DNA of 64,000 bases from Oscillospiraceae bacterium (GTDB taxonomy: Bacteria > Bacillota > Clostridia > Oscillospirales > Oscillospiraceae): NCBI GenBank assembly GCA_902761635.1, contig CACWLG010000005.1, forward strand, positions 24,819 through 88,818. The letters run 5' to 3'. Below, in pieces: positions 12,372-52,772 of the stretch (position 1 is its first letter; each line of letters opens with the position of its first letter). The notes under the pieces were generated by a model. That model saw nothing but the letters and a program-made list of their open reading frames with translations, ran no database searches and had not been told where the DNA came from. The translations under genes and the position numbers were made by a program.

Positions 12372-12373
12372 AA

Positions 12374-22317: not shown

Positions 22318-22443
22318 AAATTATGTAAAGCTATGTAATGCGTATTGGCTGAACGAACTGGAATATTTTACCTGTTTTTGACAATAAACGTAAAACATGG
22401 AAGACGCACCGCAGCGCCGGTGCGGATATATGAGGGACCGAAC

Positions 22444-34400: not shown

Positions 34401-37400
34401 TGCAAATTGCGGCTTTGAAAACTGCACGTCCAAGGCGGCCAACGGCGGCGGTCTGTATACCTCTGCGAATTACCTGACCATCATCGGCGTGGACAGCAAG
34501 TTCAAGAACTGCACGGCGCAGACAGACGGCGGCGGTTTGTATCAGAATGGAAATGCGGATAATTCGACCTTTACCTTTAAAGATGGTAGCTTTGACAATT
34601 GCACGGCGACAGGCGACTACGGCGGCGCAATCTACACAAAGGTCAAACGAAGCGTGACTTTGGAAAGCTGCACCGTCAAGGACAGCACTGCCAAGTCACA
34701 GGGCGGAGGTATCTATTTCAGCAACGGCAACACCGCCAGCTTTGAAGGCTGCACCATCACCGGCAACTCCGTCACGAACTCCGACAGCAAGGGCGGCGGC
34801 GTCTATGTTCCCGGCGGTACGACTACCTTTAAAAACAGTACCGTCAGCGGCTGTGAAGCAGCCAACGGCGGCGGCTGGTACCAGAACAACGGCACCCTGT
34901 ACATCCTCGGCGGCTCCATCAGTGGTAATGCAACAAACGGTGGCGGTATCTATCAGGCGAACGGAACAATAAACCAATATGGCGGGGATGTTGCCGGTAC
35001 AGCGACAGCAAACGGCGGCGGCGTGTACAAGAATAACGGCACCTATACCATCGGCGACGCCACCTATGGCGGCACTGCCTATTCCGGCGCGTCCATCGGC
35101 GCTGTGACTGTGGATGAAGGCGGCAGTTCTGTGTATACCGCGACGGCAGCCAACGGCGGCGGCATCTACCAGAATGCCGGCAATATCTACCTGAATCCGG
35201 GTGCGAACATCGTTGGCCAGGCGTCGGCCAACGGCGGCGGCATCTGGAACAAGGCCACCGTCACCCACAACGGAGGCGATGTGACCGGCAGCGCTGTCGA
35301 TGGCGGCGGCGTCTGGCAGACCGATACGACGAACGGCAAATATACCTTTGCCGGGGGAACGATCACCGGTACAGCCACGGGCAACGGCGGCGCGTTCTAC
35401 CAGGGCGGCAACAGCTTCACGATCAACGGCGGCACCATTGGAGAAAGAACGTTTGCTGCCGCGAGCGCCAATGAAGGAAGCGAAAACGCCGGCGAAGGCA
35501 GCAGTGAAACCAATACGAGCTCCGTTGCCAGCTCTGCGAAAAACGGCGGCGCCCTCTATGTCGCTGCCGGAAAAGCCGAAATGGGCGGAAGCAGCAATAT
35601 CACAGGCGCAAATGCTTCTGCCAACGGCGGCGGTGTGTATGTCGCCGGCGGCACGTTCAGCCTGTCCGGAGGAAACATAAAAAAGAACAAAGCAGCGGAA
35701 TCCGGCGGCGGCATATATCACGCAGGCGGTACGTTGACAGTCAGCGGCGGAACGATCGGCGGCTCTGCGGGAGATGCGAATACCGCAAGCAAAGGCGCCG
35801 GCATTTTCGTGGCTGAGGGCCAGAGCGCGGCTGTCAGCGGCGGTACGATCACTTTGAACAAGGCAGCGGAATCCGGCGGCGGCATCGCTGTGGGAGGCAG
35901 AAACGCAAAGCTGAATTTCCAGGGCTCACCGGTGGTGCGTTACAACACCATGGGCGCAAACGATACTCCGTGCAACGTCTACCTGAATTATGACAGCAAC
36001 GCGATCATTCAGACAACGAGCAGCGGACTGAGCACAGGCGCTTTCATCGGCGTCTATGCCTCGGTTGATCAGTATGAAACCCACGGACAGTCCGGTATGC
36101 ATTTCGGAACGAGAGGAAGTGAAAACAACCTCGACTGCTTCCGTAATGACCGCTTACCCTATCTGTACGGCGTAAAGGGCAGCGGCAGCCTGATCGACTG
36201 GGCAAACTTTGTCTGCAAGATCACGGACGGTGACGGCAATCTGCTGTATAAAGATACAGAAGGTACCCCGGCGGTTTACGGAAAGCTGGAAAACAATGGC
36301 GGATCGGGCAATGACAATGCTTTCGGTGTCCTGTCCCAAGCCTCTCCCTCGCTGTATCAACTGGGAAGCAACGAGAAGTACAGCGGCCCCTATCAGATCC
36401 AGATGCTTGTGCCTGATTATGTTGTTAAGGAACAAATGTCGCTGAATATTTCCGGAACAATCACGCTGACCACGGCGTCGGTCGAGGAAGACGAGTGTGG
36501 CTTCCACTTTACCGGAGACCCCAGATTCCCGCAGTCTGCCATCACCAGGCAGGGGAATTACGACAGCATGATTTACCTGAAGAATACCGGTCTGGAATTC
36601 TCGATAAGCAATCTGATCCTTGACGGCGGAAGCGGGAGTGGGTATACCGCAAAAACAAACGGCGGAATCCTGTTAAGCGATGGCGCGAAAAGTGTGACGA
36701 TCACCGATGCTGTGCTGCGCAATTCGAAAACAGGCTTGTACGGCGGCGGCATCCGCGCACAGAATAACACCAATACAATTATTACGCTGAACAACACCAC
36801 CATCACCAATTGCGTCGGCGGCGATTACGGCGGCGGTATCAGCGTAAAAGCGGGCAAGCTGATCATGAACGGCGGCAGCATAACCAACTGTTCTGCGAAA
36901 AACGGCGGCGGCGTCCGCGTGGATACCACGATGGAGATGAACGGTGGCACAATCACCGGGAATAATGCGACTGTCGACGGCGGCGGTATTTCCGCGGGCA
37001 CTGAAAATGCACGGCTGTATTTCTCCGGCCTCTGTGATGTGACAGGTAATACCCTTAACAGCTCCACGCGCTGCAATGTTCAGCTCGGTTACAACAGCAA
37101 CGCCATCATCAACGCAAACGGCCTTGATGCCAGAGCCGAGATCGGCGTGTACACGACGGGAGACATTTACAGCAAGCACGGCGTCGAGAATATGCCCTTC
37201 GGCACGCGAAAATTGGAGGATGACAACTTCTATTGCTTCATCAATGACCGCCATACGTATCTGCGCGGTTACAGGGGCGCAAATAATGATCTGATCTACT
37301 GGGAGTACCACCCGCTGCTCATGGTGACCAAAGATGTCGTGAGCGACTGGCCGGAAGACCAGACAAGAGAATTCACCTTCACGGTGCAGCTGGCAGATGT

Positions 37401-40400
37401 TCTCTTCACGTCTGCGCATAATGTCTGTGGCGATATGGATTTCAACAGAACGGGTATGGCACGCGTGACAGTGAAAGCCGGCGAGTCCAAAACCGCTGTC
37501 CTGCCTGCCACATTGCATCTGCATGACTACACAGTGACGGAGGTTCTGAGCGAGCAACAGCAGGCGGACTATACGACCACAGTGCAAAAGGATGGCAAAT
37601 CCTACGTTTTTGCTGATCCCATGACCGTTACCGGGCAACTGGGCGAGAATGTCGGCAGAGAGAACCCCTCGGACGAGAGTCAGGGTGGAGAGAATTCCTC
37701 CAGCCTTTCGGACCTGGTATTTATCAACACCCGTATGACCGGCGATCTCACCATCTCCAAGACAGTGAATAGCAGCGTGGAGGAGGATAAAGGGGAAAGC
37801 TTCTCCTTCAAGCTGACTCTGGACCCCAGTAAAACAAACCCAAAGGACAAAATCAGCAAGACCTGTTCTGTCCTCAGAAAAGACAGCGAAGGCGTGGAAA
37901 CGGAAGGCACGCTGAGCTTTACGCAGGGCGTAGCCGAGTTTACCCTGAAGGACGGACAATCCATCACATTCCTCAGCCTGCCCACGGATCTGCCATACAA
38001 GGTGGAGGAGATTCTCACCGACAGACAGACAATGCACGTGCGTACCTTTGTGAGAAAGGATGAGGGGGCGGACAGCTACTCCACAAGCCAGACTGGCAGG
38101 ATCGGCGACTATAAGAAGACTGTGACGGAGGAGGGCGTCGCGAAGACAATCTATGCCTCGGACATTTACTTCACCAACAGCTTCCTGGAGATCGTCTGCA
38201 AGATCACCAACCGCAGCCGTGCCATCCTGTACTACAAGGATGCGAGCGGCACGCTGCAGCCCGCCGTTTTCAGCCATCTGGAAGAAGCCTTCGATTTGAT
38301 CAACAGCGGCGGCGTCAGAACCTCGACCGGCGGCACAGCCTCCGGCAATATGCGCATCGAGATGGTTGTTCCGGCGTACACGATGGAGAGAACGGCGACG
38401 CTCAACAGCGGAAAAACCGTGATCCTGTCCACTGCGCTGCCGACAGACAGTGATTTCCCCTACAACAACGGTGTGGATGACGGAGTCGGCATCTCTTTGG
38501 TTTCCCGCGGCTTTACCAAGGGAAGCATGATCGTGGACAGTGGTTCCCTGACTCTGGACAAGATCACCCTGGACGGCAGTGCTGCGGCGGATGAACCAGT
38601 CACCGGCAGCGCTGACGGCGGCATTGTGCAGGTGGCAGACGCTGTCAGACTCACGGTGAACAGTGCAGCGACCCTGCAGAATTCTGCTGTGACAGGCAGT
38701 GAGGAAAGCGGCGGTGCTGTTGGCAACGGCGGTGCAGTCTATTTGTCTGCCGGAGCTTCCCTGACCATGAACGGAACCATCCAAAACTGCTCGGCAGCAA
38801 ACGGCGGCGGCATATATGCGGCGGACGGCTTTACCACCATAACCCTTACCGGACACATTGCCAACTGCGAGGCAGCCGGCGACGGCGGCGCCATCTGCGC
38901 GGAAGCCGGTACGAGCGTCAATCTCAACGCAGGCACGCTGCTGACCGGCAACAAAGCGGCAAAAGACGGCGGCGCGGTCCGCACCGGCACAAACCTCGTC
39001 CTGAGAGGCACTGTCGGCGGAACCGAAGTCAAGCAGGGCAACACAGCCGGCAACGAAGGCGGCGGCATCTACATGGGAAGCAATGCCATGCTTACCATGT
39101 ACGCGGGCAGCGAAATCACCGGCAACAGCGCAAAGAACGGCGGCGGCCTGTTTGCTCGCTATACGACCCGTATCGCCGGCGGCAGCATTGCCGGCAATGA
39201 AGCAAAAGCGGTCAACGGAGAAGGCGGCCTGGGCGGTGCACTCTATGTAACGGAGGACGGCGTTGTTACGGTTTCCGGCCTGGCAAGTCTGGCGGATAAC
39301 CGTGCCGTCCGGGGCGGCGCGGTGTACGACCGCGGCAGCGTCGCCATGAACGGCGGCAGCATGACCGGCAACGTCGCCACAGAGAAGGGCGGCGCGGCCT
39401 ATGTCGCGGATACCACGGCAGAGGATGGCAGCGTGTCCGGGCACAGCTTCTCCATGACCGGCGGCAGCATCAAGGCCGGGAACAAGTCCCCGGAGGGTGC
39501 GATTTCCACCGAGGCGCATGCCGTGCTGAACTTCTCCGGCAACTGCGATGTCAGCGGAAACACCTCTTCTGACGGCGAAACTGTCATGAACGTCTACCTC
39601 GGTTATGACAGCAACGGCATTATCCGGACCACCGGCCTTGGCGCAAGCGCCAATGTCGGCATCTATGTGGCCGACGGTGAACCGGAGACCGATAATCCCG
39701 ATGACCCGGCTTATCGGGAAGACCACAGCAACCACCCGATTTACGCGGATCACGGCGTTGCCGGCAGAAACTTCGGCACCTATACCGGCAGCAATCTCAG
39801 CGGGGCCAGACTGAACAAATTCGTAAATGACCGCGAAACCGGTCTTACCGGCATGAACGGTGAACAGATCAATGCAGGCGACTATTATGTCGCATGGCAG
39901 GGCCTGGGTCTGAAACTGAAGGTGACACAATATCTCCCGAAGCTTGACGAGAGCGGAGAAGTGGAGCTGGATGAAGAGGGCAACCCGGTCCTTTCGGGAA
40001 CCGTTGTTCCGGTCCAGAATGCAAGCTTTACCTTCACCAATATCACAAACGCCACGGAGGAAAATCCGGGTGTGCTGGTCTGGAGCGGCAAGAGCGATGC
40101 AGCGGGTCTCGTTTCGATCCCGTGGGGCGGTGAGGAGAAAGAAGGCGGCACTGCTGCAAGCTTCAAGCCAAACACCACCTACAGACTTGACCAGACGACT
40201 GCAGACACCAGGACGGTTCTCCCGGCAGGCCACTGGACTGTCACCATCTCGAGAGACAACAGTGTGACCTGGAGCGTGACGGAATCCGAGGAGGCGAACG
40301 TCGACCGTATCTTCAATATTTATAATATCAGCTCAACGGAGACGCCCAAGCTCGGTGAAACCTTCGGCCTGAACAATGACGTGAAGCCGACGATGACCTT

Positions 40401-42909
40401 CAACGCCACCGGCGGTGTGTTGAGGGACAGAAAAGCTGAGCGTACCGACACCGTCAACTTTACGACGACCGAGGTAAAGCATAGATATACGATCACGGAG
40501 CCAGATCCAAACTGGGAAAGCCACGTCTTCAAGCAATGGGCGACGATGCCGAACAAACCGGATGTCGAAGTGGATACAGCGGGAAAGACAGAAGAAGAGA
40601 TCATCGCGGCAAGAGAAGAAAAGCTGAAAGAACTGGGTTACTATGAGTACACCAGGGGTAACACGGTCACCTTCTTCCGCGGCACAGACACGGACCTTCC
40701 GGCTGTAAAGTACACGGGCACGGAATCCCGGGGCAATATGACGCTTTACGCTCAGTGGGACCCGGTGGTCTGCAAGATCACAGCTTCTGACGGCAATGTG
40801 CTGTATGAGAGCGAGAGCGGCTATCCGGCGGCATACGGCACCCTGGAAGAGGGCTTCAACGCACTCAATTCCATAAGCTTTGTCACCAAAGACGGTGCAT
40901 CAGTCCGCTCCACGGCGACTCTGTATCTTAAAATGCTGGTGCAGGAGTATACAATGACTGAAAGCGTTGTGCTTACCAAGCGAGGAAGCACGGTGCTGAC
41001 AACCGCAGATAGCACAGATACGGACGGGTATCCCTACAGCGGCACGCCCGGAACTGTGTGTACCATCTACTGCGGCGATTGCGGCAGCAGTATGATCGAG
41101 AATACGAGAAACCTTACGCTCAGGAGCATCACACTCGACGGCCGCATACCCCAGAAGGACATGTACGGCAATGTGACCGGCTATGAAACGGTAACCAGGA
41201 TATGCGACGGCGGCTTTATTGACAACCGTCCATCCTCCATACTCACGGTTGCGAGCAACGCGACGCTGCAGAACGCCAGCGTGGAGGGCAACGGCGGCGC
41301 AATCAACCTGACTGGAAACGCTTCCCTCACGATGAGCGGCGGCGCGATCACCGGCTGCAGCGCGACCGACAGCGGCGGCGCTGTCTATGCGGCGCCCAAT
41401 GCGGCTGCGACCGTCAGCGGCGGTACGATCAACGGCAACACCGCGGAATACGGTGCCGGCCTCTTCCTTTCCGAAAACAGCACGCTCAACCTCTCCGGAA
41501 ATCCTGACTTCGGCGGGACGGACCGAGTGACGCAGGATGAACTGAACAACGGTACTGTGACAGGCAAAGCAGTGGATGACCTGAAGGGCGCGGACGGCAA
41601 CTTTGTCCGCAAGGATGCGAACTTCAAGACAGAAACGGATAAGGAGCCGACGAACGGCAGCAAACAGTATCCGATGGATGGCAAACAGTATCTGGTGCGC
41701 CAGGACATCTTTATCGCGGGATATGCGGACGACACCGACCCGGCGGCCTCCCTCAACGTAACAGGCAATCTCACCTCCGGCGACGGCACGATCTGGGTCT
41801 GGGCCGAGAACGTGAGCCACTATGAGATGCTCAAGCAGTTCGCAGTGTTCTCCGGGAACGGAACCGGCCTGAGAAATGCCGAGAAGGAGAACAGCGTGAG
41901 GGCCTTCCGAGACGCGCAGCCAGACAGCCTTACCAACTGCGGCGGCGACTACCTGACCGGCCAGAGGGGCGAAGCCATCAACGGCTGGGAGTGCATCTAC
42001 TGGACCGGCGGCTTCAATGTTGTCCTGCGTAAGATTGACAGCTTTGGCAAAGGCATGAATGGCGCAACCTTCACCCTGTACAAGAGCAGCGATACAGGCC
42101 TGCCGACGACCGAAGAAGTACAGCGCAATATAAATGGTACAATGCAGGCTGTCACCGCCACGTCGAGGAATTACACGGAGGGTGAGTCGCTTGAAATCAG
42201 GGTCAGAATAGACGCTGATAACGCTGAGAGCAGGACGGTTTACGGCAATTCACTCGTACTCTTTGAAAAGATTCCGGTTGGCACCTACTACATCAAGGAG
42301 ACCGGCATCAGGATCAACGGGGTTGACAGAACAGCCGACTATCATACGGCGGAGGAGCAGTACAAGCTCGTGATAGACAAGAATGGCTGGTACACACTGT
42401 ACGCTCCCATCCACAATGCAGATGGAACGCTCTCCTGGCTGCCGGCGGCGAACCTGTCGACAGCGCCGACAACGCTCTTCGTGGGGGACGCGAACGGCAG
42501 GTATACCAATGAGATCGGCACCGGTGCGAATACGCTGGCGGTGTACACGCTGCTGAACGTGCCGAAGACGCAGCGCAAGGTGATCCTGCGCAAGGTCAGC
42601 GACAAGCATGGAGCAGTGCCGGGCGCCAAGTTCCAGATCCTTCGGTATGATCGATCGCCTGTCAGCGGAACCGACATCAACGGGACTGTGACAACGACCT
42701 TCACAAGCGGGGCCAGCGGCGTATTCTTCGTCGGAAACCTGCCCTATGGCACCTACTATCTGCACGAGACAGTCGTTCCCGACGCTTATAACAAGCTGGC
42801 TACGAATGACAACTGGTTTATCCTCACAGTCAATGAAAACGGCTATGGCTATAAGCAGGCGGATCAGACCATCATCCAAGAGCTCAAAGCAGAGACCACA
42901 GCCCCCTAA
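22444..42909 (+). CDS. Giant (about 6,820 aa) secreted/N-terminally anchored multidomain adhesin: Ala/Glu-rich stalk, Listeria-Bacteroides (Flg_new) repeats, MBG repeats, Cna-B/SpaA-like domains, five PMP-type beta-helix modules
   Basis: One uninterrupted frame. The start MRSFEKLKEY.. follows GAGGGA. The hydrophobic segment ASVLVAAECLSVVAVGLPAAYA/VEA acts as signal or anchor. MBG-like units (..EKVYDGEAL..ITSVTITGSQTKAGSS..ITYVNGTLTV), SpaA-like units (LEGAAFRLLDG.., GAKFQILRYD..) and dozens of NGGAIY/GGAVY repeats are present. No LPXTG motif or C-terminal TM segment was found. Confidence 0.9.
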   Translation: MRSFEKLKEYLQGTAARRAIASVLVAAECLSVVAVGLPAAYAVEAAPLEAVELTDRTTNSAPAAEVPESGQEETVTPAEAARLGEEAAASFANEAERAAEEAEQAADETARMLGEELTDAVLEAARQSAGQAEDAAGRARDAAERAADEADWAAQAVEIATQEAERTAAEAQEAAEEAEHAARTAEEIAEAARMLEEAAMAAQERDRERNGNEQLQEAAEERSAKREESKDKTALSTATPSPAGDLAVVPGKTEQQENAENQKTDSEQPAAAEEIPAGVTQDAAEAGATAEVKAEEAARAREYATAMAEEYDSTYAAALNASEQANRAFAASDRAARAAARAWAAVAEAEERFAQMPGDEQADQPDRPEPAEYTDAAENNDTAENNDTAENTDHMYYTDSAVTVWGEVPAGVYVQAENVSARYQDFDPNAADTLTAGETNAFLSDGSTAVKSRRVLAAYDISLSLNGEEYQPEAGSPLTVYIADPRIREGLDLEVWHIHDDGLVEPITDFTVEGGAVRFEAASFSVYLVCAYTVDFHWGDYTYSIQGESEITLSELFEKLGVTEITAADVTGVSFTNPDCIGIEQLDSDWLLRSRAPFNTEEALTLTLNNGETVEIKVTDADDDEPDDQTTESYTVTWKNEDGTVLETDENVTADTIPSYDGETPTKTDEEHKWYFAGWMPEIEAAAENREYTAQFEQCRELTITADSSSKIFDNTELTKESYTLTGELDEGDSLVSVTITGTQTEVGSAENIPSDAQLVNAEGEDVTGHYDITYVNGTLEVRERAITITAGSAEKVYDGEALEEKNWTSTELANGDTITSVTITGSQTKAGSSDNVPSKAVIVDSDGNPVTLPYNITYVNGTLTVNPQGVTLKANSATLPFNSEEQQVTGYTCSVDGLSFEGVEARGKGKDINIYDVEFTGVTLNETRDTTGNYIVTGLEKGLLIIVENTGESVILLEKELSGFNGDLASYTINVNPEGRVLSGEGKELTLKDTFSGNQSIDYGSIEVHSTTDENVPYDYSGNTGTYTIPDGTAVTITYTTRVKGNAGEEVTFSNTAVLGRMEDWTFVGGPTVTIENTETVTPTGTDISGTGGVYTIELFVYAQNHMEEGLEGAAFRLLDGNMQPMLYRAGANAGKPIVFTTGEKGRVTVQLSEETDGLSIHKNTVYYLEMITAPYQIKNGEYIYYQKDNTYYSFLITDDPRYEYGGVYAYFNGDVLKVRCYPEINGVNITKRFSGNYTLTKEQQNAIRFILQKEALDTESGWVDVESHDYSEFSYGSLNFKVGKEGGTELEDNATYRVIEENVLPTELEGIIEENVAVSVTYQREGRPVEEASNEFYIDPDDKLAFSYNLAFTNEYIDHKLTIIKIDEESGKALEGADYTVFPARGGDALITYTTDAGGGITIRRNDAGAQYETDTLYYAVETKSPENYILPANPRKVYFYFSENSSTVPAGLPFGETATDLTSSYNTVTMENDSTSIDIPVTVVWGINGSDAWPQEVDHVVIALYQSVGGGAPIPVPGAQQIVLTRDQYYDTRSYTGLPALEDGKTIAYSVVEEGIYTSGNEPITERFARSSSISGTGWYVVHNQPAVSVTIRKEWVDQDGETIIGNTDSKPDVSVDLYRTTTESAAASFTRAELLAFLANAERVRTGLTLSKESDWSITVDSLEKMKSQEKPYYYYALEKVPDNQEDSYLIVAAAESEPRTLTIKNKQTPVTVTIQADNLEKTYGDADPAFTFEASSVMEEGASISVTGPEDGKYIGHVIAADGTEKTIEFTASRVIGKDDGTYDDVGTYVITPAGDAIQSGYRVLYETGILTINKAKVTITAGAEKTYGEDNPAYVTVEGLKGDDTISYKVSRESGEDAGEYSITLEGEADQGNYQVDFVREDEEGNTYVFTIKRANAAITPIAAEKLYGEDDPEFTAKVTGLVNDDEPSVIIFDLNRTPGENVGKYTITPACEDVQGNYNVTYTTAVFTINPAELILEMEDAEKTYGDDDPEWDVTIDGLQIGEDEGELRSVLNEETGVRTYTYSIEKDEQTVELFSFTAARADGENVGEYTVTLSTDRNPQGNYTLTKAEPGEQGSYTITSGLLHILRAELDVKPKHQVKAIDVPDDPLLAADIEGWRNGDNVEEETTLVTTETSEDGKTITRTYRRGEGDKAETFTVISSVSDDKIVTWTYKRGETTLLTFTLKRDPGEDEGDYPVTANGLDAQSNYAVFFDQGTFSILSILDIDVAQPLTDYADADAKPAYHYTATLDLEGTGLDEYNKNGFETVEGVPTLSFVLPDEVTAEEMRTLKVPAGAKLTVKQNDDNNDYTTAIRIDGSPYTNPEPVPTCVLASADTYHEIAFAHSRISVLVEARASENQEEDGATVLSGRKGAVGIPRDADGNPSENGRKINIDFAEEMHSNIGYELPSDKYYSYHHASLYTAPASGNGNPVVTNITGIRYGRYTREDGTEAYKWQYTSLDSEEFTDVPADTKLVLFYLPKFVCKIGSEKFYSLKDAVNYASENDKTATIEMLIGEYSIRSASDAVTIPADCNITVTTASEGYEGTGTAVIGRSMSYTGGHLFINKGTLTLDSIILDGKGVRATDATVLNEANLTVTGNATLRNAIGNNGGAIYAKDGTVTVSGSLSGNTAAYGGAVYVKGGTVTTTVSGKLTGNSATYGGAVYVEDGGVELGGMIGGEGQANTATGNGGAVYLNKGELTLNGSLANNEAANGGAVYQNGGTLTVSGSMSENSATANGGGVYLNNGTLTIKASGSAAENTATANGGAVYQSGGTLENNGAISGNSAVSGGGIYRVNGTLTVNGVISGNSASTDGGGVYSNGGTLNLSATVSGNSAVNGGAIYVSSATLNVNGGRIGGTEEGDANTATDNGGAIYALNATTTIGTAVGAVTLSGNSAMNGGAVYMEGGSLNVMHANSELTKNIATNGGAVYATSGTITLTNGKLSENEAGTSGGAIYSGSASVTVAAGSLSGNKAKQGNGGAICSESGTVTVSGGTLSGNSASKSESTDSGLGLGGAIYASSGTVNYSGGNINGGNMAVNGAAIFVGSGIANISASITGNTASAGGALGVGSTNARLNFKGNAEVNGNKMNGAESNVYLDVDSELVINADSLGNSKKIGVYVPGALDSDQVVNHGDVTAYFGSYVSAGTIGNVASVFKNDRFSDLKVGYENNRLYWTNALKYDVYYLSSYSGQFPPTTNYQATPSKKVCSGKSYVPRTRESDIYDLVMAMKLYEAHNTDFTNQVGSNYASLAVYAYTFSDKAMDNTFGNYLKRVEWDASARKWMFTKQNGEKAPADTSKLVIFYSSPAYLTIVNNNENGLTLTLSEIDVLGYNAAEGLYGYVTAQNGATVQTLRALTADDLTLKAGDSIKLMLPGAQKQNITLKGTMSGEGATYSFKGGDGQVSDTVSGTDFELNGKLYESDAAAELLFGSELPICKIGNEPFSTLKAAMAYAKAQKTATGNNTYKIEMLVDYLVPATDVLDIPEGYDITFTTADKDAETLPYTGNGTRATLSRDTGNTGASVTAKKSTLTVEELAFDGRSLTAGGKGGAISTENCTTVTIKNCDFKGYRAGNGGAVYVENKSAGSSLTVEDCTFYNCQTNADVDKAGGGAIWTTARELYVRDCTFDFCACLQGRAQAGSVFHNIQANWFADSKTVISDCTFSNSYAVGGSGGTVESDAYDVTIQRCTFEGSYTNKPGGSGGAINTYANNEANTTKYCIMKVIDCAFDNCSAKNGAAMGGAVRCSTHDLILRGCIFRNCQGVTGGAVAMTNTNAKKVEIYGCTFETCIANGNGGAVSAPAGTLIVGVEDTEVEDYQTTYLDTDKTEKDGSNHFTGCAANRGGGIDNAKNDSAVTMQNVHFTDCEARSSSGGALYTQAKTLSITGTSNTFTNCTGNGNGGAVYQNRNVDGSIVTLNNCVFTGCEAKNNGNGGGMYANARTMRVNYDKDNESAVEGAKSSFKNCTAANAGGGLYHDYAGTLTIANCGFENCTSKAANGGGLYTSANYLTIIGVDSKFKNCTAQTDGGGLYQNGNADNSTFTFKDGSFDNCTATGDYGGAIYTKVKRSVTLESCTVKDSTAKSQGGGIYFSNGNTASFEGCTITGNSVTNSDSKGGGVYVPGGTTTFKNSTVSGCEAANGGGWYQNNGTLYILGGSISGNATNGGGIYQANGTINQYGGDVAGTATANGGGVYKNNGTYTIGDATYGGTAYSGASIGAVTVDEGGSSVYTATAANGGGIYQNAGNIYLNPGANIVGQASANGGGIWNKATVTHNGGDVTGSAVDGGGVWQTDTTNGKYTFAGGTITGTATGNGGAFYQGGNSFTINGGTIGERTFAAASANEGSENAGEGSSETNTSSVASSAKNGGALYVAAGKAEMGGSSNITGANASANGGGVYVAGGTFSLSGGNIKKNKAAESGGGIYHAGGTLTVSGGTIGGSAGDANTASKGAGIFVAEGQSAAVSGGTITLNKAAESGGGIAVGGRNAKLNFQGSPVVRYNTMGANDTPCNVYLNYDSNAIIQTTSSGLSTGAFIGVYASVDQYETHGQSGMHFGTRGSENNLDCFRNDRLPYLYGVKGSGSLIDWANFVCKITDGDGNLLYKDTEGTPAVYGKLENNGGSGNDNAFGVLSQASPSLYQLGSNEKYSGPYQIQMLVPDYVVKEQMSLNISGTITLTTASVEEDECGFHFTGDPRFPQSAITRQGNYDSMIYLKNTGLEFSISNLILDGGSGSGYTAKTNGGILLSDGAKSVTITDAVLRNSKTGLYGGGIRAQNNTNTIITLNNTTITNCVGGDYGGGISVKAGKLIMNGGSITNCSAKNGGGVRVDTTMEMNGGTITGNNATVDGGGISAGTENARLYFSGLCDVTGNTLNSSTRCNVQLGYNSNAIINANGLDARAEIGVYTTGDIYSKHGVENMPFGTRKLEDDNFYCFINDRHTYLRGYRGANNDLIYWEYHPLLMVTKDVVSDWPEDQTREFTFTVQLADVLFTSAHNVCGDMDFNRTGMARVTVKAGESKTAVLPATLHLHDYTVTEVLSEQQQADYTTTVQKDGKSYVFADPMTVTGQLGENVGRENPSDESQGGENSSSLSDLVFINTRMTGDLTISKTVNSSVEEDKGESFSFKLTLDPSKTNPKDKISKTCSVLRKDSEGVETEGTLSFTQGVAEFTLKDGQSITFLSLPTDLPYKVEEILTDRQTMHVRTFVRKDEGADSYSTSQTGRIGDYKKTVTEEGVAKTIYASDIYFTNSFLEIVCKITNRSRAILYYKDASGTLQPAVFSHLEEAFDLINSGGVRTSTGGTASGNMRIEMVVPAYTMERTATLNSGKTVILSTALPTDSDFPYNNGVDDGVGISLVSRGFTKGSMIVDSGSLTLDKITLDGSAAADEPVTGSADGGIVQVADAVRLTVNSAATLQNSAVTGSEESGGAVGNGGAVYLSAGASLTMNGTIQNCSAANGGGIYAADGFTTITLTGHIANCEAAGDGGAICAEAGTSVNLNAGTLLTGNKAAKDGGAVRTGTNLVLRGTVGGTEVKQGNTAGNEGGGIYMGSNAMLTMYAGSEITGNSAKNGGGLFARYTTRIAGGSIAGNEAKAVNGEGGLGGALYVTEDGVVTVSGLASLADNRAVRGGAVYDRGSVAMNGGSMTGNVATEKGGAAYVADTTAEDGSVSGHSFSMTGGSIKAGNKSPEGAISTEAHAVLNFSGNCDVSGNTSSDGETVMNVYLGYDSNGIIRTTGLGASANVGIYVADGEPETDNPDDPAYREDHSNHPIYADHGVAGRNFGTYTGSNLSGARLNKFVNDRETGLTGMNGEQINAGDYYVAWQGLGLKLKVTQYLPKLDESGEVELDEEGNPVLSGTVVPVQNASFTFTNITNATEENPGVLVWSGKSDAAGLVSIPWGGEEKEGGTAASFKPNTTYRLDQTTADTRTVLPAGHWTVTISRDNSVTWSVTESEEANVDRIFNIYNISSTETPKLGETFGLNNDVKPTMTFNATGGVLRDRKAERTDTVNFTTTEVKHRYTITEPDPNWESHVFKQWATMPNKPDVEVDTAGKTEEEIIAAREEKLKELGYYEYTRGNTVTFFRGTDTDLPAVKYTGTESRGNMTLYAQWDPVVCKITASDGNVLYESESGYPAAYGTLEEGFNALNSISFVTKDGASVRSTATLYLKMLVQEYTMTESVVLTKRGSTVLTTADSTDTDGYPYSGTPGTVCTIYCGDCGSSMIENTRNLTLRSITLDGRIPQKDMYGNVTGYETVTRICDGGFIDNRPSSILTVASNATLQNASVEGNGGAINLTGNASLTMSGGAITGCSATDSGGAVYAAPNAAATVSGGTINGNTAEYGAGLFLSENSTLNLSGNPDFGGTDRVTQDELNNGTVTGKAVDDLKGADGNFVRKDANFKTETDKEPTNGSKQYPMDGKQYLVRQDIFIAGYADDTDPAASLNVTGNLTSGDGTIWVWAENVSHYEMLKQFAVFSGNGTGLRNAEKENSVRAFRDAQPDSLTNCGGDYLTGQRGEAINGWECIYWTGGFNVVLRKIDSFGKGMNGATFTLYKSSDTGLPTTEEVQRNINGTMQAVTATSRNYTEGESLEIRVRIDADNAESRTVYGNSLVLFEKIPVGTYYIKETGIRINGVDRTADYHTAEEQYKLVIDKNGWYTLYAPIHNADGTLSWLPAANLSTAPTTLFVGDANGRYTNEIGTGANTLAVYTLLNVPKTQRKVILRKVSDKHGAVPGAKFQILRYDRSPVSGTDINGTVTTTFTSGASGVFFVGNLPYGTYYLHETVVPDAYNKLATNDNWFILTVNENGYGYKQADQTIIQELKAETTAP
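23572..23622 (+). repeat. In-frame 18-nt tandem repeat (2.8 copies; AENNDT AENNDT AENTD)
   Basis: GCGGAGAATAACGACACA occurs twice exactly, followed by GCGGAGAACACGGAC. Confidence 0.9.
29908..31986 (+). repeat. Beta-helix module 1 of the giant protein
   Basis: Begins FVCKIGSEKFYSLKDAV. The body is made of GGAIY/GGAVY repeats. It ends NVYLDVDSELVI..IGVYV..FKNDRFSDL..NRLYW. Confidence 0.6.
32761..36201 (+). repeat. Beta-helix module 2 of the giant protein
   Basis: Begins ICKIGNEPFSTLKAAM. The body has Cys-containing C.F.NC..GGA repeats followed by GGG(I/V)Y repeats. It ends CNVYLNYDSNAII..IGVYA..FRNDRLPYL..LIDW. Confidence 0.6.
36211..37302 (+). repeat. Beta-helix module 3 of the giant protein
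   Basis: Begins VCKITDGDGNLLYKD and ends CNVQLGYNSNAII..IGVYT..FINDRHTYL..LIYW. It is followed by Cna-B-like stalk domains. Confidence 0.6.
38194..39897 (+). repeat. Beta-helix module 4 of the giant protein
   Basis: Begins VCKITNRSRAILYYKD and ends MNVYLGYDSNGII..VGIYV..FVNDRETGL..YYVAW. Confidence 0.6.
40768..42003 (+). repeat. Beta-helix module 5 of the giant protein (more divergent C-cap)
   Basis: Begins VCKITASDGNVLYES and ends ..WECIYW. It is followed by two SpaA-like domains that run to the stop codon. Confidence 0.5.
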
Positions 42910-43045: not shown

Positions 43046-43849
43046 ATGCAGGCGATCAGGAGAAAACTAAGATCCCAGCGCGGCGCGTCGATTACCTTTG
43101 CCCTGCTGATTTTCCTCGTGTGCGCAGTGGTCGGCTCGGTGGTGCTGACCGCAGCAACGGCGGCTTCCGGCCGCATGAGCAGACTGGCTGAGATGGATCA
43201 GCGCTACTATAGTGTGACATCCGCTGCAGACCTTCTGGCGAAGGAATTGTCAAACAAAAAAATTAGCATTGTCAGGACACAAGAGTATACAGACAGCGTA
43301 AGTACAACCTACACGCTCAGTGTTGATGAGAATGGGGAGGAGATTATCAATGCCGGGACGCCCGTATCAAGCAGAACAGACCCCGAATACAGTACAAAAA
43401 TCAACGAGCAGGAGGTCGTGGGGACTTGGACGGCAAGCAGCTTTCTGACCAAACAGGCGGTCAGACTGATGTATGGAGACAAGAACTTCAATACAGAAGC
43501 GGCTTTTGATTTCTCCTTAAAAAACGGGAATGCCGATGAAGGAACATTCACGCTGTCCCACGAAAACAACGAGGCTCTGGGCATCAACGGGAACTATAAG
43601 CTCAAGAAGGATGGAACGCTGATGCTGATCCTCAAGGATACAATCGGGGAGGATCATTACACGATCACCGTGTCCTTAAAGCCGCATATCAGGGAGTGGC
43701 CTGATTCTGTAACAGATAAACTGCCAATCGAGATAAAAAACAATGAGAGCGACAGCGGATACACCGAGATTGCACAGGAGAAGACAGTACTCTATAAGTA
43801 TTCGGAAATATACTGGACATTAAGCAGCATTTCGACGGGAGATGAGTGA
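43046..43849 (+). CDS. PilX/ComGG-like minor pilin (non-canonical leader)
   Basis: The ATG at 43046 follows GGAGGAGA. The N-terminus MQAIRRKLRSQRGASITFALLIFLVCAVVGSVVL is PilX_N-like: Arg-Gly followed by a hydrophobic helix, with no Glu at +5. Confidence 0.6.
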   Translation: MQAIRRKLRSQRGASITFALLIFLVCAVVGSVVLTAATAASGRMSRLAEMDQRYYSVTSAADLLAKELSNKKISIVRTQEYTDSVSTTYTLSVDENGEEIINAGTPVSSRTDPEYSTKINEQEVVGTWTASSFLTKQAVRLMYGDKNFNTEAAFDFSLKNGNADEGTFTLSHENNEALGINGNYKLKKDGTLMLILKDTIGEDHYTITVSLKPHIREWPDSVTDKLPIEIKNNESDSGYTEIAQEKTVLYKYSEIYWTLSSISTGDE

Positions 43850-44195
43850 AGTGAAAAAAAGAGTGATTGACAAGCTCCGCGCTCAAACCGGTGAAAGCAT
43901 TGCGGAGGTGCTGATCGCGCTGCTGGTCTCTGCCGTCGCACTCATGCTTCTGGCCAATATGATTACCTCCGCAACCAGTATCATAACAGGCAACCGAGAG
44001 GCATTCGACAACTATGTCACCGCCGGAAATGCCCTCATGGCGCATGAGGGGACTGCGAGCAGCGGAACGGTTACGTTTAAAAGCGATAATACAGAAATGA
44101 AACTGACCGATGATCTTTTATCTTCCTCAAAAATAACAGTTACGTATTACGCAAACACAAACAGAAATATAGTCAAGTCGTATGTTAAAAAATGA
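43842..44195 (+). CDS. Small pilin-like protein
   Basis: 117 aa. The leader ..RAQTG/ESIAEVLIALLVSAVALMLLANMI has Glu at +5. The start overlaps the upstream stop. Confidence 0.6.
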   Translation: MSEVKKRVIDKLRAQTGESIAEVLIALLVSAVALMLLANMITSATSIITGNREAFDNYVTAGNALMAHEGTASSGTVTFKSDNTEMKLTDDLLSSSKITVTYYANTNRNIVKSYVKK

Positions 44196-44207: not shown

Positions 44208-44744
44208 ATGAACAGACTGAGAATGCGATTAAAGAACAATAAGGGCTTTACACTTGCAGAGCTTTTGATTACCGTGTTGATTTTGCTTATGGTTTCGACT
44301 GTCGTCGCAGCAGGAATGCCATCGGCTGTCAACGCACTGGGAAAGGTGGTGGATGCCGCCCATGCGGAATCTCTGTTTGCGACGACATATACCGCCCTGC
44401 GTGACGAACTTTCAACAGCGATTCCGAATCGGACGATCACGGCGAGCGGGAAGAGCATCACCTATACAGACAGTGACGGCATCGTATCAAAAATCGAATC
44501 AAAGGATGACGGCATTTATATTACGAAACCCGCTGCTGCTGAATCAGGCAACGAAAGACTTCTCATTTCAAAGGTCGCAGCAACAGAAAACCTGTATATG
44601 ACGTTTCAGGATATAAAATACAGCAGCGGAATCGTTGAGATCACAGATCTGGCTGTGAATAACAGCAAGACAGGCAATACTGTAAACAACTTGAAAAAAG
44701 TGATGATCCGAATTGTGGGCTATGAAGCCATTAAAGCGGCTTAG
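44208..44744 (+). CDS. Type IV prepilin (canonical N-terminal cleavage/methylation motif)
   Basis: 178 aa. MNRLRMRLKNNKG/FTLAELLITVLILLMVSTVV is a class III signal peptide with Phe at +1 and Glu at +5. Confidence 0.8.
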   Translation: MNRLRMRLKNNKGFTLAELLITVLILLMVSTVVAAGMPSAVNALGKVVDAAHAESLFATTYTALRDELSTAIPNRTITASGKSITYTDSDGIVSKIESKDDGIYITKPAAAESGNERLLISKVAATENLYMTFQDIKYSSGIVEITDLAVNNSKTGNTVNNLKKVMIRIVGYEAIKAA

Positions 44745-47021
44745 GTGATGAAGATGCGAAAAAACCGGACAAAGATGGGCTTCACATTGGCTGAAGTCTT
44801 GATAGTGATTGCAATAATCGGCATTTTGGGCGGCATGGTTGCGGTCAATGTGGCACGGTATTTCCGGTCTTTAACAAAGCTGGAATATGACAATTATGCC
44901 AAATCCATATTTGTCGCCGCGCAGAACCACCTGATCATGGCCGAGCATGAGGGGTACTTGGGCCGGACCGATTTCGGTACGAAGGAAGAAGCCATTTCCG
45001 GCATTCCCGACAGCGGCAATGAGGTCTACTATTTTGTCGTTCAGAACGGCAATATCGGCGATACGACGGTGCTGAGCCTGATCCTTCCGGACAATGCGGT
45101 CGATGCCGCCGTTCAGAGCCAGAGCTATATCATCCGCTATCACAAACCGACAGCCCAGGTGCTCGATGTTTTTTACTGGTCTGAAGGCGGACGCGACGGG
45201 GACCTGTTCAATCGCGCGTCACGCTATAAGCATTCCTACAGCGACAGCGATTATGCAGCCTTTCTCAGCAATCGAAGCGACAAAGAAGCACTCACGGATT
45301 ATGGAACAGATCATTCCGTTATCGGCTACTATGGCGGCGTTGAAGCCCAGAGTAAAAGCCCGGTTAAGGTCAAGGACCCGTCGCTTGTCGTACATAATGA
45401 GGAAGTCCTTTTCGTCAGGATCACCGATCCGAATGCAGATATTGAAACCTCTTTGCTGGAGCTTATTATCAAAGGGAATACCAGCGGCGGAGATCCTTTG
45501 CATATTTTTATCGATGAGAAGAATGACAACCCCTTCTTCAGCAGAATCAAACCGAGGCGGGATCTCAGCAGTGACTGGAATAAAGAGCATGTGTATGACA
45601 TCATTCTGGATGATATAACGACTTCAGGTCTGCATTTTTCGAATCTGAGCGCTGGCTTCCATCCCGGTGAGGATATCACGATTTATGCGGCAAGCTCCAA
45701 CAGTGAGCCCTCTAATGTGGGTTACAGCGCGGAGGCTGTTACAAACAGTCTGTTTGAAGACAATACCACAGTGAAGACAGCCACGGTTGACGCAGGCATC
45801 ACGAATTTCCGGCATCTCGAAAACATGAGCCCTGCGGTTTCCGGCATTGCTGACAGCACGACGAATACGGCAAAGCCCGTCTATTTGCAAAGCGCGAAAC
45901 AGCAGGCCAATCTGGATTGGAATACGTTTCGGGGCAAAGTCAATACCCTTTGGAGTGCATGGAAGGATACCCGGGACCATGTGAATATCTTCAACAATGC
46001 CGGGACAAAGATGAAGGACAATCAGTATCTGCCGGTTGACCCGGTTGTGAAGCTCTCGTACAATGGACAGAGTCACAGCATTAAGAATGTCAGCGTTGAC
46101 CACAGCGATTCTGCCGGCCTCTTTGGCAGACTTTCTGAAGGCAGCAGCGTATCCAACCTGGAGCTGATCGACTTTACAATCAAAGGTACGGCAAACGCAA
46201 ACGCAGGCGCACTGGCGGGTACTGTGACCAACTGCACGGTCACAAACGTCCTGGCACATAACAGTAAATCCGGTGCAACGGTTAATGTTACCGCCTCCGG
46301 CAGCGTCGGCGGCCTGATCGGCAGCATGAGCGGCGGCAGCGTCACAAAGAGCGCCGCAGCCCTCTGGGTAGAGTCATCCGGCAGCAGCGCCGGCGGCCTG
46401 ATCGGCAGCATGTCCGGCAGCACCAGCACCGTCTCCGCAAGCTATGCGGGCGGTCACACGGAGAATGCAAAGTATTCTGCATCGAAGTTTAACGTCACCG
46501 GCACGACCGCCGGCGGTCTGATCGGCAGCATGACAGGCGGGTCTGTGAGCGGCAGCTATTCCACCTGCTCGGCCTCCGGCACGACGGCGGGCGGCTTTGC
46601 GGGCAGCGGCAGCGGCAGCATCAGCAACTGCTACTGCACGGGCCTCGTCTCCGGTACAACAAGCGGCGCCTTTGCCGGATCGCTTACAACGAATCCGACC
46701 GACTGTCAGTATTTCGAGATCATCAATCAGGTTCCGGACGCCAGTCAGGGTTATGTCTGCCTGTCCTCCGTCGGCAGGGGAGCGAGCAACCCAGGCATTA
46801 CAGCCTTTGATGCAACAGCGAAAACATATGATGACTTTTGCGGAGCCTCCAATAGTTGGGATCCTGCCAACCCTTACGATACCACATTGAAAGGCTACTA
46901 TAACGGCAAGTACAACCTCAAAACCGTGGCGCAGCTTGGCGCATCGGTGAACACAACTGATTTCGTCACCACCCACTACGGCGACTGGCCCGCGCCGGAA
47001 GCCTTTGTAGTCAACAAGTAA
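44745..47021 (+). CDS. 758-aa modular pilin ('mega-pilin') with C-terminal GLUG-type repeats
   Basis: The leader is ..KNRTKMG/FTLAEVLIVIAIIGILGGMV. Candidate starts are GTG 44745, ATG 44748 and ATG 44754. Repeats of (A/V)GGLIGSM.GG.V, plus ISNCYCTGLVSG, lie at about 46110-46700. Confidence 0.8.
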   Translation: MMKMRKNRTKMGFTLAEVLIVIAIIGILGGMVAVNVARYFRSLTKLEYDNYAKSIFVAAQNHLIMAEHEGYLGRTDFGTKEEAISGIPDSGNEVYYFVVQNGNIGDTTVLSLILPDNAVDAAVQSQSYIIRYHKPTAQVLDVFYWSEGGRDGDLFNRASRYKHSYSDSDYAAFLSNRSDKEALTDYGTDHSVIGYYGGVEAQSKSPVKVKDPSLVVHNEEVLFVRITDPNADIETSLLELIIKGNTSGGDPLHIFIDEKNDNPFFSRIKPRRDLSSDWNKEHVYDIILDDITTSGLHFSNLSAGFHPGEDITIYAASSNSEPSNVGYSAEAVTNSLFEDNTTVKTATVDAGITNFRHLENMSPAVSGIADSTTNTAKPVYLQSAKQQANLDWNTFRGKVNTLWSAWKDTRDHVNIFNNAGTKMKDNQYLPVDPVVKLSYNGQSHSIKNVSVDHSDSAGLFGRLSEGSSVSNLELIDFTIKGTANANAGALAGTVTNCTVTNVLAHNSKSGATVNVTASGSVGGLIGSMSGGSVTKSAAALWVESSGSSAGGLIGSMSGSTSTVSASYAGGHTENAKYSASKFNVTGTTAGGLIGSMTGGSVSGSYSTCSASGTTAGGFAGSGSGSISNCYCTGLVSGTTSGAFAGSLTTNPTDCQYFEIINQVPDASQGYVCLSSVGRGASNPGITAFDATAKTYDDFCGASNSWDPANPYDTTLKGYYNGKYNLKTVAQLGASVNTTDFVTTHYGDWPAPEAFVVNK

Positions 47022-47194: not shown

Positions 47195-47956
47195 ATGAAA
47201 GCACCACAAGGGTCAAAACTGCATAGTGAGCGGGGAATATCCTGGGTCATCGCCGTATTGCTGGTTCTGGTGATCGTGCTTGCCATCACAAGTCTGATCC
47301 CCAGCTATAGAAAATACCAGGAACAGGGCAAAGAAGTGGCCTGCGCCACGGCGCTGGATACGGCGCGGCGGCAGCTTGCGGCTAATTTCATGTTCAACGG
47401 GTTTGATAACGACTCTGCCGAGGAGGCCAAAGCCTTTGTCACCTATGTCATGAACGGCTGGGACGATCTCTGTCCCGCCGGCGGCAGCGTCTATGTCGTC
47501 CCAAAAGCGAACAGCCCCATGGACTGGGAAATCATCTGCGGCCTGCACTGCTCGGACAGTCGGCTCTGCACCCGCCTCAATGCCTACAACGTGCGCAGTC
47601 AGCTCCAGGAGGCATTGCTCAAGGAGCGCAACAAGGGCAATCCCTTCCCCGAGAGCCTGCCCTACACCCTGCACAGCAAGCCGCATACCGCCTGGCTTAC
47701 GGATGCGGATGTCGGACTCAAGCGCGGCACAAGGCTGACGGAGGGGCAGGAGGGCATTGTCGCCTATTATTCTGTGGTGGGCCACAGTGATTTCGGCGCG
47801 GACTCCGGCATGAAGAAAGGGGAAATGTGGTATTTCACCTTTGCCGATGAGGAACACTGCGCCAACTGGAGCTATCACGACGAATGGACCGGAGACAGCT
47901 ACTGGAATGTGACGGGTACGGATTATGAGTATCTGTCCGACATGGTCATTCAGTAA
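47195..47956 (+). CDS. Pilin-like protein with a degenerate leader (no Glu5)
   Basis: 253 aa. ..SERG/ISWVIAVLLVLVIVLAITSLIPSYRKYQEQGKEVACATAL resembles a pilin alpha-1 helix, including the IPxYxxY segment. Confidence 0.5.
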   Translation: MKAPQGSKLHSERGISWVIAVLLVLVIVLAITSLIPSYRKYQEQGKEVACATALDTARRQLAANFMFNGFDNDSAEEAKAFVTYVMNGWDDLCPAGGSVYVVPKANSPMDWEIICGLHCSDSRLCTRLNAYNVRSQLQEALLKERNKGNPFPESLPYTLHSKPHTAWLTDADVGLKRGTRLTEGQEGIVAYYSVVGHSDFGADSGMKKGEMWYFTFADEEHCANWSYHDEWTGDSYWNVTGTDYEYLSDMVIQ

Positions 47957-47990
47957 ACCCGGGCAAGTGCCTTTGGAGGGGGAATACACA

Positions 47991-48788
47991 ATGTCCATAT
48001 GGAGCGACAGGGGCCTGCTGATTTACTGCTGCGTCATGGCCTTCTGCGTGGGCGCGGTGTTCGGCTCCTTCCTCAACTGTGCCGCCTGGCGCATCGCCCA
48101 CGGGGAATCCTTCCTCGGCGGGCACAGCCGCTGTCCGCACTGCGGGCATGAGCTTGGCATGCTTGATCTGGTGCCGATCCTGAGCTGGCTGTTCCTGCGC
48201 GGGCGCTGCCGCTACTGCGGTGAAAGGATCTCCGTGCGCTATCCGCTGACGGAGCTTGCCTTTGCCGTGCTGACGCTGCTGTGTCTGCTGCGCTTTGACC
48301 TCACGATCCTCTGCCTGCGCAACTGGATCTTTCTCGCCTGCCTCTTCTGCCTTTCGCTGGTGGATCTGGAGTGCTATACGATCCCGGACGGCTGCCTGCT
48401 GGTTGCGGCGGGCGCCTGGGTCGCGGCCCTGCCATTCCTGCGGCCCGGCTGGGCGGAGATCACACGCTCGGTCCTGGCAGGCCTGAGCTTCGGCGGCGGC
48501 ATCCTGCTCATGAGCGTCGTGATGGATAAACTCCTGGGCAAGGAGAGCCTCGGCGGCGGAGACGTGAAGCTCTTTGCTGTGGTCGGGCTCTATCTCGGCT
48601 TTGCGGGCGGCCTGTTTACGGTGCTGCTCTCGTGCGTGCTGGGGCTTCTCTTTGCCCTGGCGCAGGCGCAGCGGGGCAGAGCCGGCCAGCCCATCCCCTT
48701 TGGGCCCTCCATCTCCCTGGCCGCAGCGCTGATGCTGCTGTTCGGGCAGGGCATCATACAGTGGTATACCGGCCTTCTTGGCCTTTAA
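47991..48788 (+). CDS. pilD: Prepilin peptidase (A24 family)
   Basis: The ATG at 47991 follows GGAGGGGG. Contains the zinc-binding motif CPHCGH..CRYCGE, GGGDVKLF (catalytic Asp), and multiple TM segments. Confidence 0.9.
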   Translation: MSIWSDRGLLIYCCVMAFCVGAVFGSFLNCAAWRIAHGESFLGGHSRCPHCGHELGMLDLVPILSWLFLRGRCRYCGERISVRYPLTELAFAVLTLLCLLRFDLTILCLRNWIFLACLFCLSLVDLECYTIPDGCLLVAAGAWVAALPFLRPGWAEITRSVLAGLSFGGGILLMSVVMDKLLGKESLGGGDVKLFAVVGLYLGFAGGLFTVLLSCVLGLLFALAQAQRGRAGQPIPFGPSISLAAALMLLFGQGIIQWYTGLLGL

Positions 48789-48871
48789 CAGTTTTTTGAA
48801 CACGGCAGGAAGCCGCATTGCGGGCGCCTGACAAGATACCCTATTCGGAAAAAGGAAGCTTGGTGAAGAGT

Positions 48872-49894: not shown

Positions 49895-49900
49895 TCGGGG

Positions 49901-51230: not shown

Positions 51231-51260
51231 TTGCTTATTCTGACCGAGGGAGAGAGCGTC

Positions 51261-52757: not shown

Positions 52758-52772
52758 GGACGGGCATGCCAG

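Follow-up and report, generated by a model that had tools for sequence, protein, structure and literature searches.

The DNA analysed here, a 64,000-nucleotide (nt) stretch of contig CACWLG010000005.1 from an Oscillospiraceae bacterium (hereafter the window), encodes on its forward strand, at 44745-47021, a large pilin-like protein that we call the mega-pilin. We are highly confident that this protein is a genuine modular minor pilin with a GLUG-type beta-helix, and not a peptidase. We also somewhat favor an overall reading in which this minor pilin is the stalk and carrier for a giant adhesin encoded beside it, the carrier role taken by itself being close to an even call. A preliminary description of the window, made from the sequence alone, had already proposed a modular pilin with a GLUG-type beta-helix module, and this proposal is borne out by the AlphaFold2 (AF2) model, by Foldseek and by the family matches of homologs. 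That description missed the beta-sandwich, the linker, the C-terminal domain and the linkage or fusion to giant surface proteins.

Pilin module and predicted stalk

The coordinates and length first reported for the open reading frame (ORF) agree with the ORF list and translation, which give 758 amino acids (aa) from the GTG start and 757 aa from ATG 44748. The database copy (P0001) is an identical 757-aa protein that begins one codon later than the GTG, at ATG 44748. The parts of the gene, with the basis for each, are as follows.

44745..47021, + strand: mega-pilin gene; GTG at 44745, probable ATG start at 44748, stop at 47019-47021 (ORF list and translation)
44745..44780, + strand: class III signal peptide leader, aa 1-12, last residue Gly-1 (N_methyl and TIGR02532 above their cut-offs)
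44781..45359, + strand: pilin module, aa 13-205 (AF2 models with a predicted local distance difference test score, pLDDT, of 87-91; alpha1-N sequence matches to solved pilins)
45360..45800, + strand: predicted immunoglobulin-like (Ig-like) beta-sandwich, aa 206-352 (DSSP on the AF2 model, about 10 strands, pLDDT >90)
45801..46055, + strand: predicted partly helical linker, aa 353-437, with a conserved RHLENL motif (AF2 model)
46056..46712, + strand: predicted beta-helix of seven GLUG-type repeats, aa 438-656 (repeat anchors, shuffle test, GLUG matches of homologs, Foldseek)
46713..47018, + strand: predicted C-terminal alpha/beta domain, aa 657-758, ending HYGDWP(A/S)PE-x-hydrophobic-x-(V/I)-N (AF2 model and family alignment)

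The N-terminus reads MKMRKNRTKMG/FTLAEVLIVIAIIGIL. The prepilin cleavage/methylation site noted in the preliminary description (Gly-1, Phe+1 and Glu+5; G/FTLAE) is recognized by two profiles above their cut-offs, PF07963 N_methyl (22.6 bits versus 21.2) and TIGR02532 (18 versus 16.3). Gly-1 and Glu+5 occur together in 79 of 80 family members from related loci, and in the mega-pilin alignment G12 and E17 are at least 90% conserved or invariant. PDB sequence searches matched the alpha1-N of pilins only, plus a marginal match to 3n6z. Because its pilin module precedes a domain with a signature that is not peculiar to pili, the protein is a modular pilin as defined in PMC8179133.

The whole-protein AF2 model, built on an alignment of 88 sequences, reached a pLDDT of 91.2 and a predicted template modeling score of 0.78. 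It predicts a 54-residue alpha1 helix (aa 15-68) and a head of four beta-strands and short helices extending to about aa 205, followed by the four sub-domains listed above. In the linker, R356, H357 and N360 are invariant in the family alignment. The beta-helix anticipated in the preliminary description appears at aa 438-656 as short strands throughout, at pLDDT >93, and has a mean column identity of 0.61. The most conserved element of the module is the extreme C-terminus, where H-Y-G-D-W-P is invariant in the family and H744, G746, D747 and W748 are invariant across the 88 sequences. In this monomer model the last 8 residues, at pLDDT 64, are the least confident stretch of the C-terminal half.

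A Foldseek search of the PDB with the AF2 model placed three IgA1 proteases at the top (7uvl, 7uvk and 6xjb; E 7e-6 to 9e-4, about 570 aligned columns), and only M26 IgA1 protease structures reached E<=1e-3. TM-scores to these structures reach only 0.24-0.29, since the correspondence extends over no more than a part of each chain. Weaker matches include Ig-like and fibronectin-like chains as well as pectate lyase and polygalacturonase, and the family profile matches the putative IgA1 protease 3n6z at E=0.021.

Repeats and the relation to M26 proteases

Within the beta-helix, seven anchors of the G-G-L-I-G type lie at aa 457, 487, 521, 549, 589, 615 and 640 (nt about 46113-46680), 25-40 aa apart in a repeat region spanning aa 457-645, which is where the preliminary description had placed its repeats (about 46110-46700). 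Six of the seven match the regular expression [AVSG]G[GAL][LFA][IFAV]G; shuffles of the same region gave a mean of 0.05 matches, and six matches were reached in 0 of 20000. The glycine residues of the anchors are invariant across 88 homologs.

The assignment of these repeats to GLUG was less direct. On the mega-pilin itself, the GLUG profile PF07581 fell below threshold (E=0.44, 11.5 bits versus a cut-off of 20.5, in 4 stretches), and the C-terminal 339 aa alone were likewise sub-threshold against Pfam GLUG. We settled the question through structure and through Pfam scans of each of 60 full-length homologs, where 28 of the 60 matched PF07581 at E<=0.01 (best 4.7e-11). The GLUG homology first claimed for the mega-pilin is thus supported transitively, through its relatives. 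Peptidase_M26_N was matched by 8 of these homologs, and the only Pfam families found among the 60 were N_methyl, Glug, M26_N and one DUF.

A motif scan found neither HExxH nor HxxEH anywhere in the mega-pilin, and none of the 60 members (0/60) matched the catalytic Peptidase_M26_C, from which we conclude that the mega-pilin shares the non-catalytic beta-helix part of M26 enzymes and not their activity. With zinc motif and catalytic domain both missing, we rejected an identification as an M26 peptidase.

The GLUG motif presumably corresponds to InterPro entry IPR011493. The preliminary description took the module to be undescribed on a type IV pilin, a claim that does not hold: Raynaud et al. 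2021 (PMC8179133) had already counted the IPR012902-IPR011493 architecture in 6 proteins (Dataset S1), which their Discussion reads as a predicted M26 peptidase. What is new about the mega-pilin is its connection to giant adhesins; the GLUG module in itself is not. In the literature, we found no prior description of the size of the family, the four-part stalk, its place in a four-gene cassette, or its coupling and fusion to giants.

Family size and distribution

Judged by sequence matches, the mega-pilin is not a one-off; its family spans hundreds of clusters at 50% identity. A word-indexed search gave 436 matches among the scored candidates; the best 120 are without exception full length (696-885 aa) and share 37-80% identity with the mega-pilin. 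When the non-pilin part (aa 201-758) was searched exhaustively with HMMER, the number of matching clusters (50% identity) was 3590 at E<=1e-3, falling to 1184 at E<=1e-10 and to 591 at E<=1e-30. The matched relatives derive mostly from metagenome-assembled genomes (MAGs), and the few named ones are called 'type II secretion system protein' by NCBI.

Among species-representative genomes, 197 stretches encode a relative, from which 79 distinct loci were kept. These are overwhelmingly from ruminant gut MAGs, with the labels Ruminococcaceae, Oscillospiraceae, Lachnospiraceae, Butyrivibrio, Mogibacterium, Erysipelotrichaceae and several Coriobacteriia. The closest representative (L006), a Ruminococcaceae MAG, encodes a relative of 70% identity in an identical gene order. 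The single cultured isolate among the kept loci, Oribacterium sp. NK2B42 (L069; NZ_KE384191.1:22020-44434), has a giant ORF of at least 3330 aa immediately after its cassette and offers a possible experimental system.

The family also occurs in MAGs labeled Coriobacteriaceae, Atopobiaceae, Eggerthellaceae or actinobacterium (L062, L067, L072, L073, L078 and L082). This distribution suggests inter-phylum transfer in the rumen, unless the bins are contaminated.

Giant proteins beside and fused to the mega-pilin

The proposed partner in the window lies on the same strand, upstream of the mega-pilin.

22345..42909, + strand: giant secreted protein, 6854 aa, likely ATG at 22444 (ORF list); proposed cargo or partner

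A gap of 137 nt separates this ORF from the cassette of pilin-like genes downstream, in which the mega-pilin is the last. The giant has a Sec-type signal and an Ala/Glu-rich stretch of about 400 aa; in Pfam it matches six MBG_2 domains, SpaA, DUF7601 and long Chlam_PMP-like beta-helix repeats. No C-terminal LPXTG or other recognizable wall anchor was found on it.

Comparable arrangements recur. On the first two homologous contigs inspected, which are independent, proteins of 4263-6209 aa adjoin the cassette. We then defined 56 loci as assessable, with at least 3.5 kilobases (kb) on both sides of the cassette, and counted as a giant any ORF of at least 1000 aa on the same strand within 1.5 kb. 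A giant adjoins the cassette in 40 of these 56 loci (upstream in 24, downstream in 18, on both sides in 2). Most can be sized only as >2400-3300 aa because their ORFs run off the 10-kb flank. The pilus machinery lies directly downstream of the cassette in 12 loci, 7 of which have a giant upstream too. At least one genome, RUG12424, has two distinct cassettes with a separate giant for each (L022 and L033).

In at least five independent cases, pilin and giant are fused in frame, in proteins of 2856 to >4138 aa.

L049:2022-10868: fusion of 2856 aa
L062:7638-20051: fusion of at least 4138 aa, running off the contig
L071:6282-18659: fusion of at least 4126 aa
P0148: fusion of 3040 aa
L085:1378-12270: fusion P0231 on its own contig (L085), 3630 aa

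Each begins with a prepilin signal and a whole mega-pilin, and GDWPxPExxVN marks the point from which it passes directly into a giant protein. Beyond this junction comes a domain with homology to aa 435-571 of the window giant (pairwise E 2e-7 to 4e-4); it also stands directly after the signal peptide in giants of the downstream type. We know of no larger pilins than these single ORFs, if they are real.

The same C-terminal end recurs within longer pilins. In tandem variants, the unit of beta-sandwich, beta-helix and C-terminal domain is present two or three times (P0121, P0122 and P0125; L058, L064, L076, L079 and L083), giving mega-pilin ORFs of 1400-2116 aa in the five loci named. Every copy ends in HYGDW, suggesting that stalk length is adjustable, and the internal HYGDW runs into the first strand of the next beta-sandwich, so that the C-terminus behaves as a natural domain joint.

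Just upstream of the giant ORF in the window is a gene for a vWA-domain protein (18901-21177, + strand), by coincidence also of 758 aa. The vWA domain is a known adhesive module on pilins and PilY1.

Cassette and pilus machinery

The mega-pilin is the last of four consecutive pilin-like genes. About 77 of 84 loci show the same succession (K-like, 117 aa, 178 aa, mega-pilin). The three genes that precede it in the window are the following.

43046..43849, + strand: first cassette gene, 267 aa, G/ASITF, lacking Glu5 (a GspK/PilX-like trait); N-termini conserved in 76 loci
43842..44195, + strand: second cassette gene, 117-aa minor pilin-like protein, G/ESIAE, Glu5 present; weak PilV/XpsI-type matches
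44208..44744, + strand: third cassette gene, 178-aa prepilin, G/FTLAE; N_methyl at 27.6 bits, conserved in 77 of 84 loci

A group of four minor pilins that includes one without Glu5 is a hallmark of initiation or tip complexes in type IV filaments (PMC13533445), and the four-gene cassette is probably such a complex. The minor or low-abundance role envisaged in the preliminary description fits the last place of the mega-pilin in this conserved cassette, next to pilD-pilMNO. The genes for PilD, PilM and the PilN- and PilO-like proteins begin 0.9 kb downstream of the mega-pilin, those for PilB, PilT and PilC also lie within the window, and the machinery synteny of the window recurs in related loci.

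47195..47956, + strand: 253-aa pilin-like protein without Glu5; no Pfam or NCBIfam family match
47925-48788, + strand: PilD (Pfam A24_N_bact, Peptidase_A24)
48818-49894, + strand: PilM (Pfam PilM_2)
49901-50548, + strand: PilN-like protein
50545-51141, + strand: PilO-like protein; T2SSM was a further Pfam match within 47925-51141
6543-7751, - strand: PilC, platform protein (Pfam T2SSF)
7807-8859, - strand: PilT, ATPase (Pfam T2SSE)
8880-10592, - strand: PilB, ATPase (Pfam T2SSE, MshEN)

The 253-aa protein begins G/ISWVI, or G/GVNR in other lineages, and is encoded immediately upstream of pilD throughout 19 related loci. The pilus genes of the window are split, with pilC/T/B about 32 kb from the cassette and pilD-MNO; in many relatives they lie between the mega-pilin and pilD. 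Two ORFs, 10637-12892 (-) and 21259-22038 (+), were rejected as genes of the system, their translations resembling non-coding shadow frames.

Other neighbors are mentioned for completeness. Directly after the PilO-like gene, 51231-54221 (+) encodes an MBOAT-family acyltransferase and a 482-aa protein without a family match, which might conceivably modify a surface polymer. A GAF and ABC-ATPase gene lies at 60914-62242 (+) of the window, and a similar gene stands just downstream of the cassette in a related locus (L004:14154-19606), followed by a 1408-aa FtsX/MacB-like coiled-coil protein. In another (L001:6204-8079), the cassette is preceded by a 133-aa N_methyl pilin and a Wzy_C (O-antigen ligase-like) gene, which hints at pilin glycosylation.

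Proposed carrier role and its alternatives

We propose that the neighboring prepilin peptidase PilD would cleave the mega-pilin leader and that the N-terminal alpha-helix would insert the protein into the pilus together with the three other pilin-like proteins of the cassette, probably at the tip. The remaining residues, about 550, would form a rigid stalk of beta-sandwich, GLUG-repeat beta-helix and small C-terminal domain, without protease activity of its own and homologous to the M26 IgA1 proteases in their N-terminal, non-catalytic part. This stalk would carry the adhesin whose gene adjoins the cassette, a giant exported by Sec (6854 aa in the window), and the joint would be the invariant C-terminal end, HYGDWPxPE-x-F-x-V-N. 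In the fused genomes the reading frame continues from this joint into the giant, which would amount to covalent presentation; where the genes are separate, the giant would be bound through its conserved N-terminal domain, onto which the C-terminal end of the pilin would dock. We infer the processing by PilD, the location in the filament and, above all, the docking of a separate giant from sequence, fold prediction and gene context.

Several observations weigh against a carrier role. No giant ORF stands beside the cassette in 16 of the 56 assessable loci, so the mega-pilin can exist without one, and adjacency could reflect co-regulation or co-transfer in place of physical contact. Almost all data come from MAGs, so a few of the fusions could be assembly or frameshift artifacts. 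The filament context also has weak points. When the pilin module alone was modeled (m9a0856c1becd), Foldseek returned no significant match to a solved pilin (best E 0.4; pilins at E 1.2-1.3, with C. difficile PilW at E 1.2), so no GspH, I, J or K class was assigned. The K-like assignment of the first cassette gene is a weak one, drawn from its missing Glu5 and from GspK matches in 7 of 46 family members (best E 0.0035); the family profile found no sequence match in the PDB. No major pilin gene was found within the window.

The loci without a giant would suit a self-sufficient adhesive pilin, whose beta-helix and C-terminal domain bind a ligand (a protein, or a glycan from the plant cell wall or the host) while the giant is an independent adhesin, merely co-located or co-regulated. 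Beta-helices are common carbohydrate-binding and adhesin folds, as the weaker matches to pectate lyase and polygalacturonase recall, and the module is strongly conserved in its beta-helix. Modular pilins with an effector module, such as the vWA of S. sanguinis PilB, are well documented (PMC8179133). This explanation leaves the in-frame fusions to giants at a fixed junction unaccounted for, as well as the adjacency in 40 of 56 loci, always on the same strand. A further point against it is that the most conserved element is the extreme C-terminus, which behaves as a domain joint in tandem and fused variants. We regard it as unlikely.

The missing major pilin and the NCBI name of the homologs lend themselves to another explanation, a short pseudopilus resembling that of type II secretion. 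The four pilin-like proteins would then be a wall-spanning piston or scaffold that takes the Sec-exported giant through the thick peptidoglycan and keeps it at the cell surface. The giant is equipped with a Sec signal and no recognizable wall anchor, and it is far too large to diffuse through peptidoglycan. Against this stand the PilT-type retraction ATPase and the MshEN-domain PilB, typical of dynamic type IVa pili, and the 133-aa N_methyl pilin just upstream of the cassette in one homologous locus. Moreover, type II secretion systems are not known from monoderms. We consider a pseudopilus improbable.

It is very improbable that the mega-pilin stays outside the filament and uses its class III signal peptide as a mere membrane anchor, as some archaeal and Gram-positive binding proteins do. 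A bulky 550-aa module may fit poorly in a filament, and the pilin head lacks a significant match to solved pilins; yet the gene is in strict synteny with three pilin-like genes and a full assembly machinery, Glu5, which is needed for assembly, is conserved, and other bulky modular pilins do enter filaments (PMC8179133). The suggestion made for the IPR012902-IPR011493 architecture (PMC8179133), an M26-type peptidase borne on the pilus, would suit the IgA1 protease structures at the head of the Foldseek matches and the 8 homologs with Peptidase_M26_N, but we give it almost no credence, given that the zinc motifs and M26_C are missing and the similarity is restricted to the non-catalytic beta-helix part.

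Discussion

Like the modular pilins of S. sanguinis (PilB with vWA, PilC with lectin; PMC8179133), the mega-pilin joins a class III signal pilin module to a grafted module unrelated to pili, and its gene, too, lies in a type IV pilus locus of a monoderm and encodes a minor pilin. It departs from the catalog of Raynaud et al. in that its graft, of about 550 aa, comprises four sub-domains and may be present in two or three copies, and in that the family is far larger than six proteins and is not a peptidase. The coupling and fusion to giants are not reported there. With the M26 IgA1 metalloproteases of S. pneumoniae and G. haemolysans (6xjb, 7uvk and 7uvl, and the putative 3n6z) it shares the GLUG-repeat beta-helix; unlike them it lacks M26_C and HExxH, and a pilin N-terminus replaces the Sec signal with LPXTG or a membrane anchor.

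The large tip proteins PilC/PilY1, MshQ and CpaL/TadG are locked to a minor-pilin complex by a terminal beta-strand, which in the PilY1 type is donated to a minor pilin of the PilK family (Ellison et al. 2026, PMC13533445). As in PilC/PilY1, MshQ and CpaL, we find a large non-canonical protein encoded beside minor pilins, together with a conserved motif at an extreme C-terminus, and CpaL is itself a pilin-like protein of about 600 aa with a bulky middle, resembling the mega-pilin. The systems differ in that our Pfam scans gave no PilY1-typical families: the beta-propeller (IPR008707) was not found in the giant, which matched MBG_2, SpaA, Chlam_PMP and DUF7601 only. The conserved C-terminus here is on the pilin and not on the giant, and the giants showed no convincing PilY1-like C-terminal strand, ending in an SpaA/CnaB-like domain, a short variable tail and a weak E-[TD]-x-x-P end. 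At 3000-7000 aa, the partner is also several times larger than PilY1.

A second parallel is with the type IVb proteins CofB and TcpB, large minor pilins with extra beta-rich domains that act as tip adaptors, presenting a separately secreted protein (CofJ and TcpF, respectively); the presentation of CofJ by CofB at the pilus is discussed in PMC8179133. The mega-pilin differs from these in having unrelated domains, no implied trimer, a monoderm type IVa-like machinery with PilT, and a giant adhesin in place of a small colonization factor.

Type IV pili have been implicated in adhesion by fiber-degrading Firmicutes of the rumen, as in the attachment of R. albus to cellulose, and the minor pilins involved are uncharacterized. 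We tentatively suggest, at somewhat less than even confidence, that the type IV pili of many rumen and gut Clostridia and of some Coriobacteriia display megadalton adhesins, the HYGDWPxPE-strand of a stalk pilin holding a secreted protein of 3000-7000 aa, possibly by beta-strand complementation with the N-terminal domain of the giant. If true, this would extend the logic of the PilY1/MshQ/CpaL tip complex and its large adhesin to a monoderm type IVa-like pilus made from different building blocks, and pilin-GLUG proteins would no longer be taken for peptidases, as had been guessed earlier. The merged single pilins of >4000 aa would be by far the largest pilins known, raising the size limit of pilins by an order of magnitude. 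Such a mechanism would explain how giants without LPXTG stay on monoderm cells, and it would constitute a sortase-independent attachment of giant surface proteins in monoderms, a monoderm counterpart of PilY1 assembled from unrelated parts.

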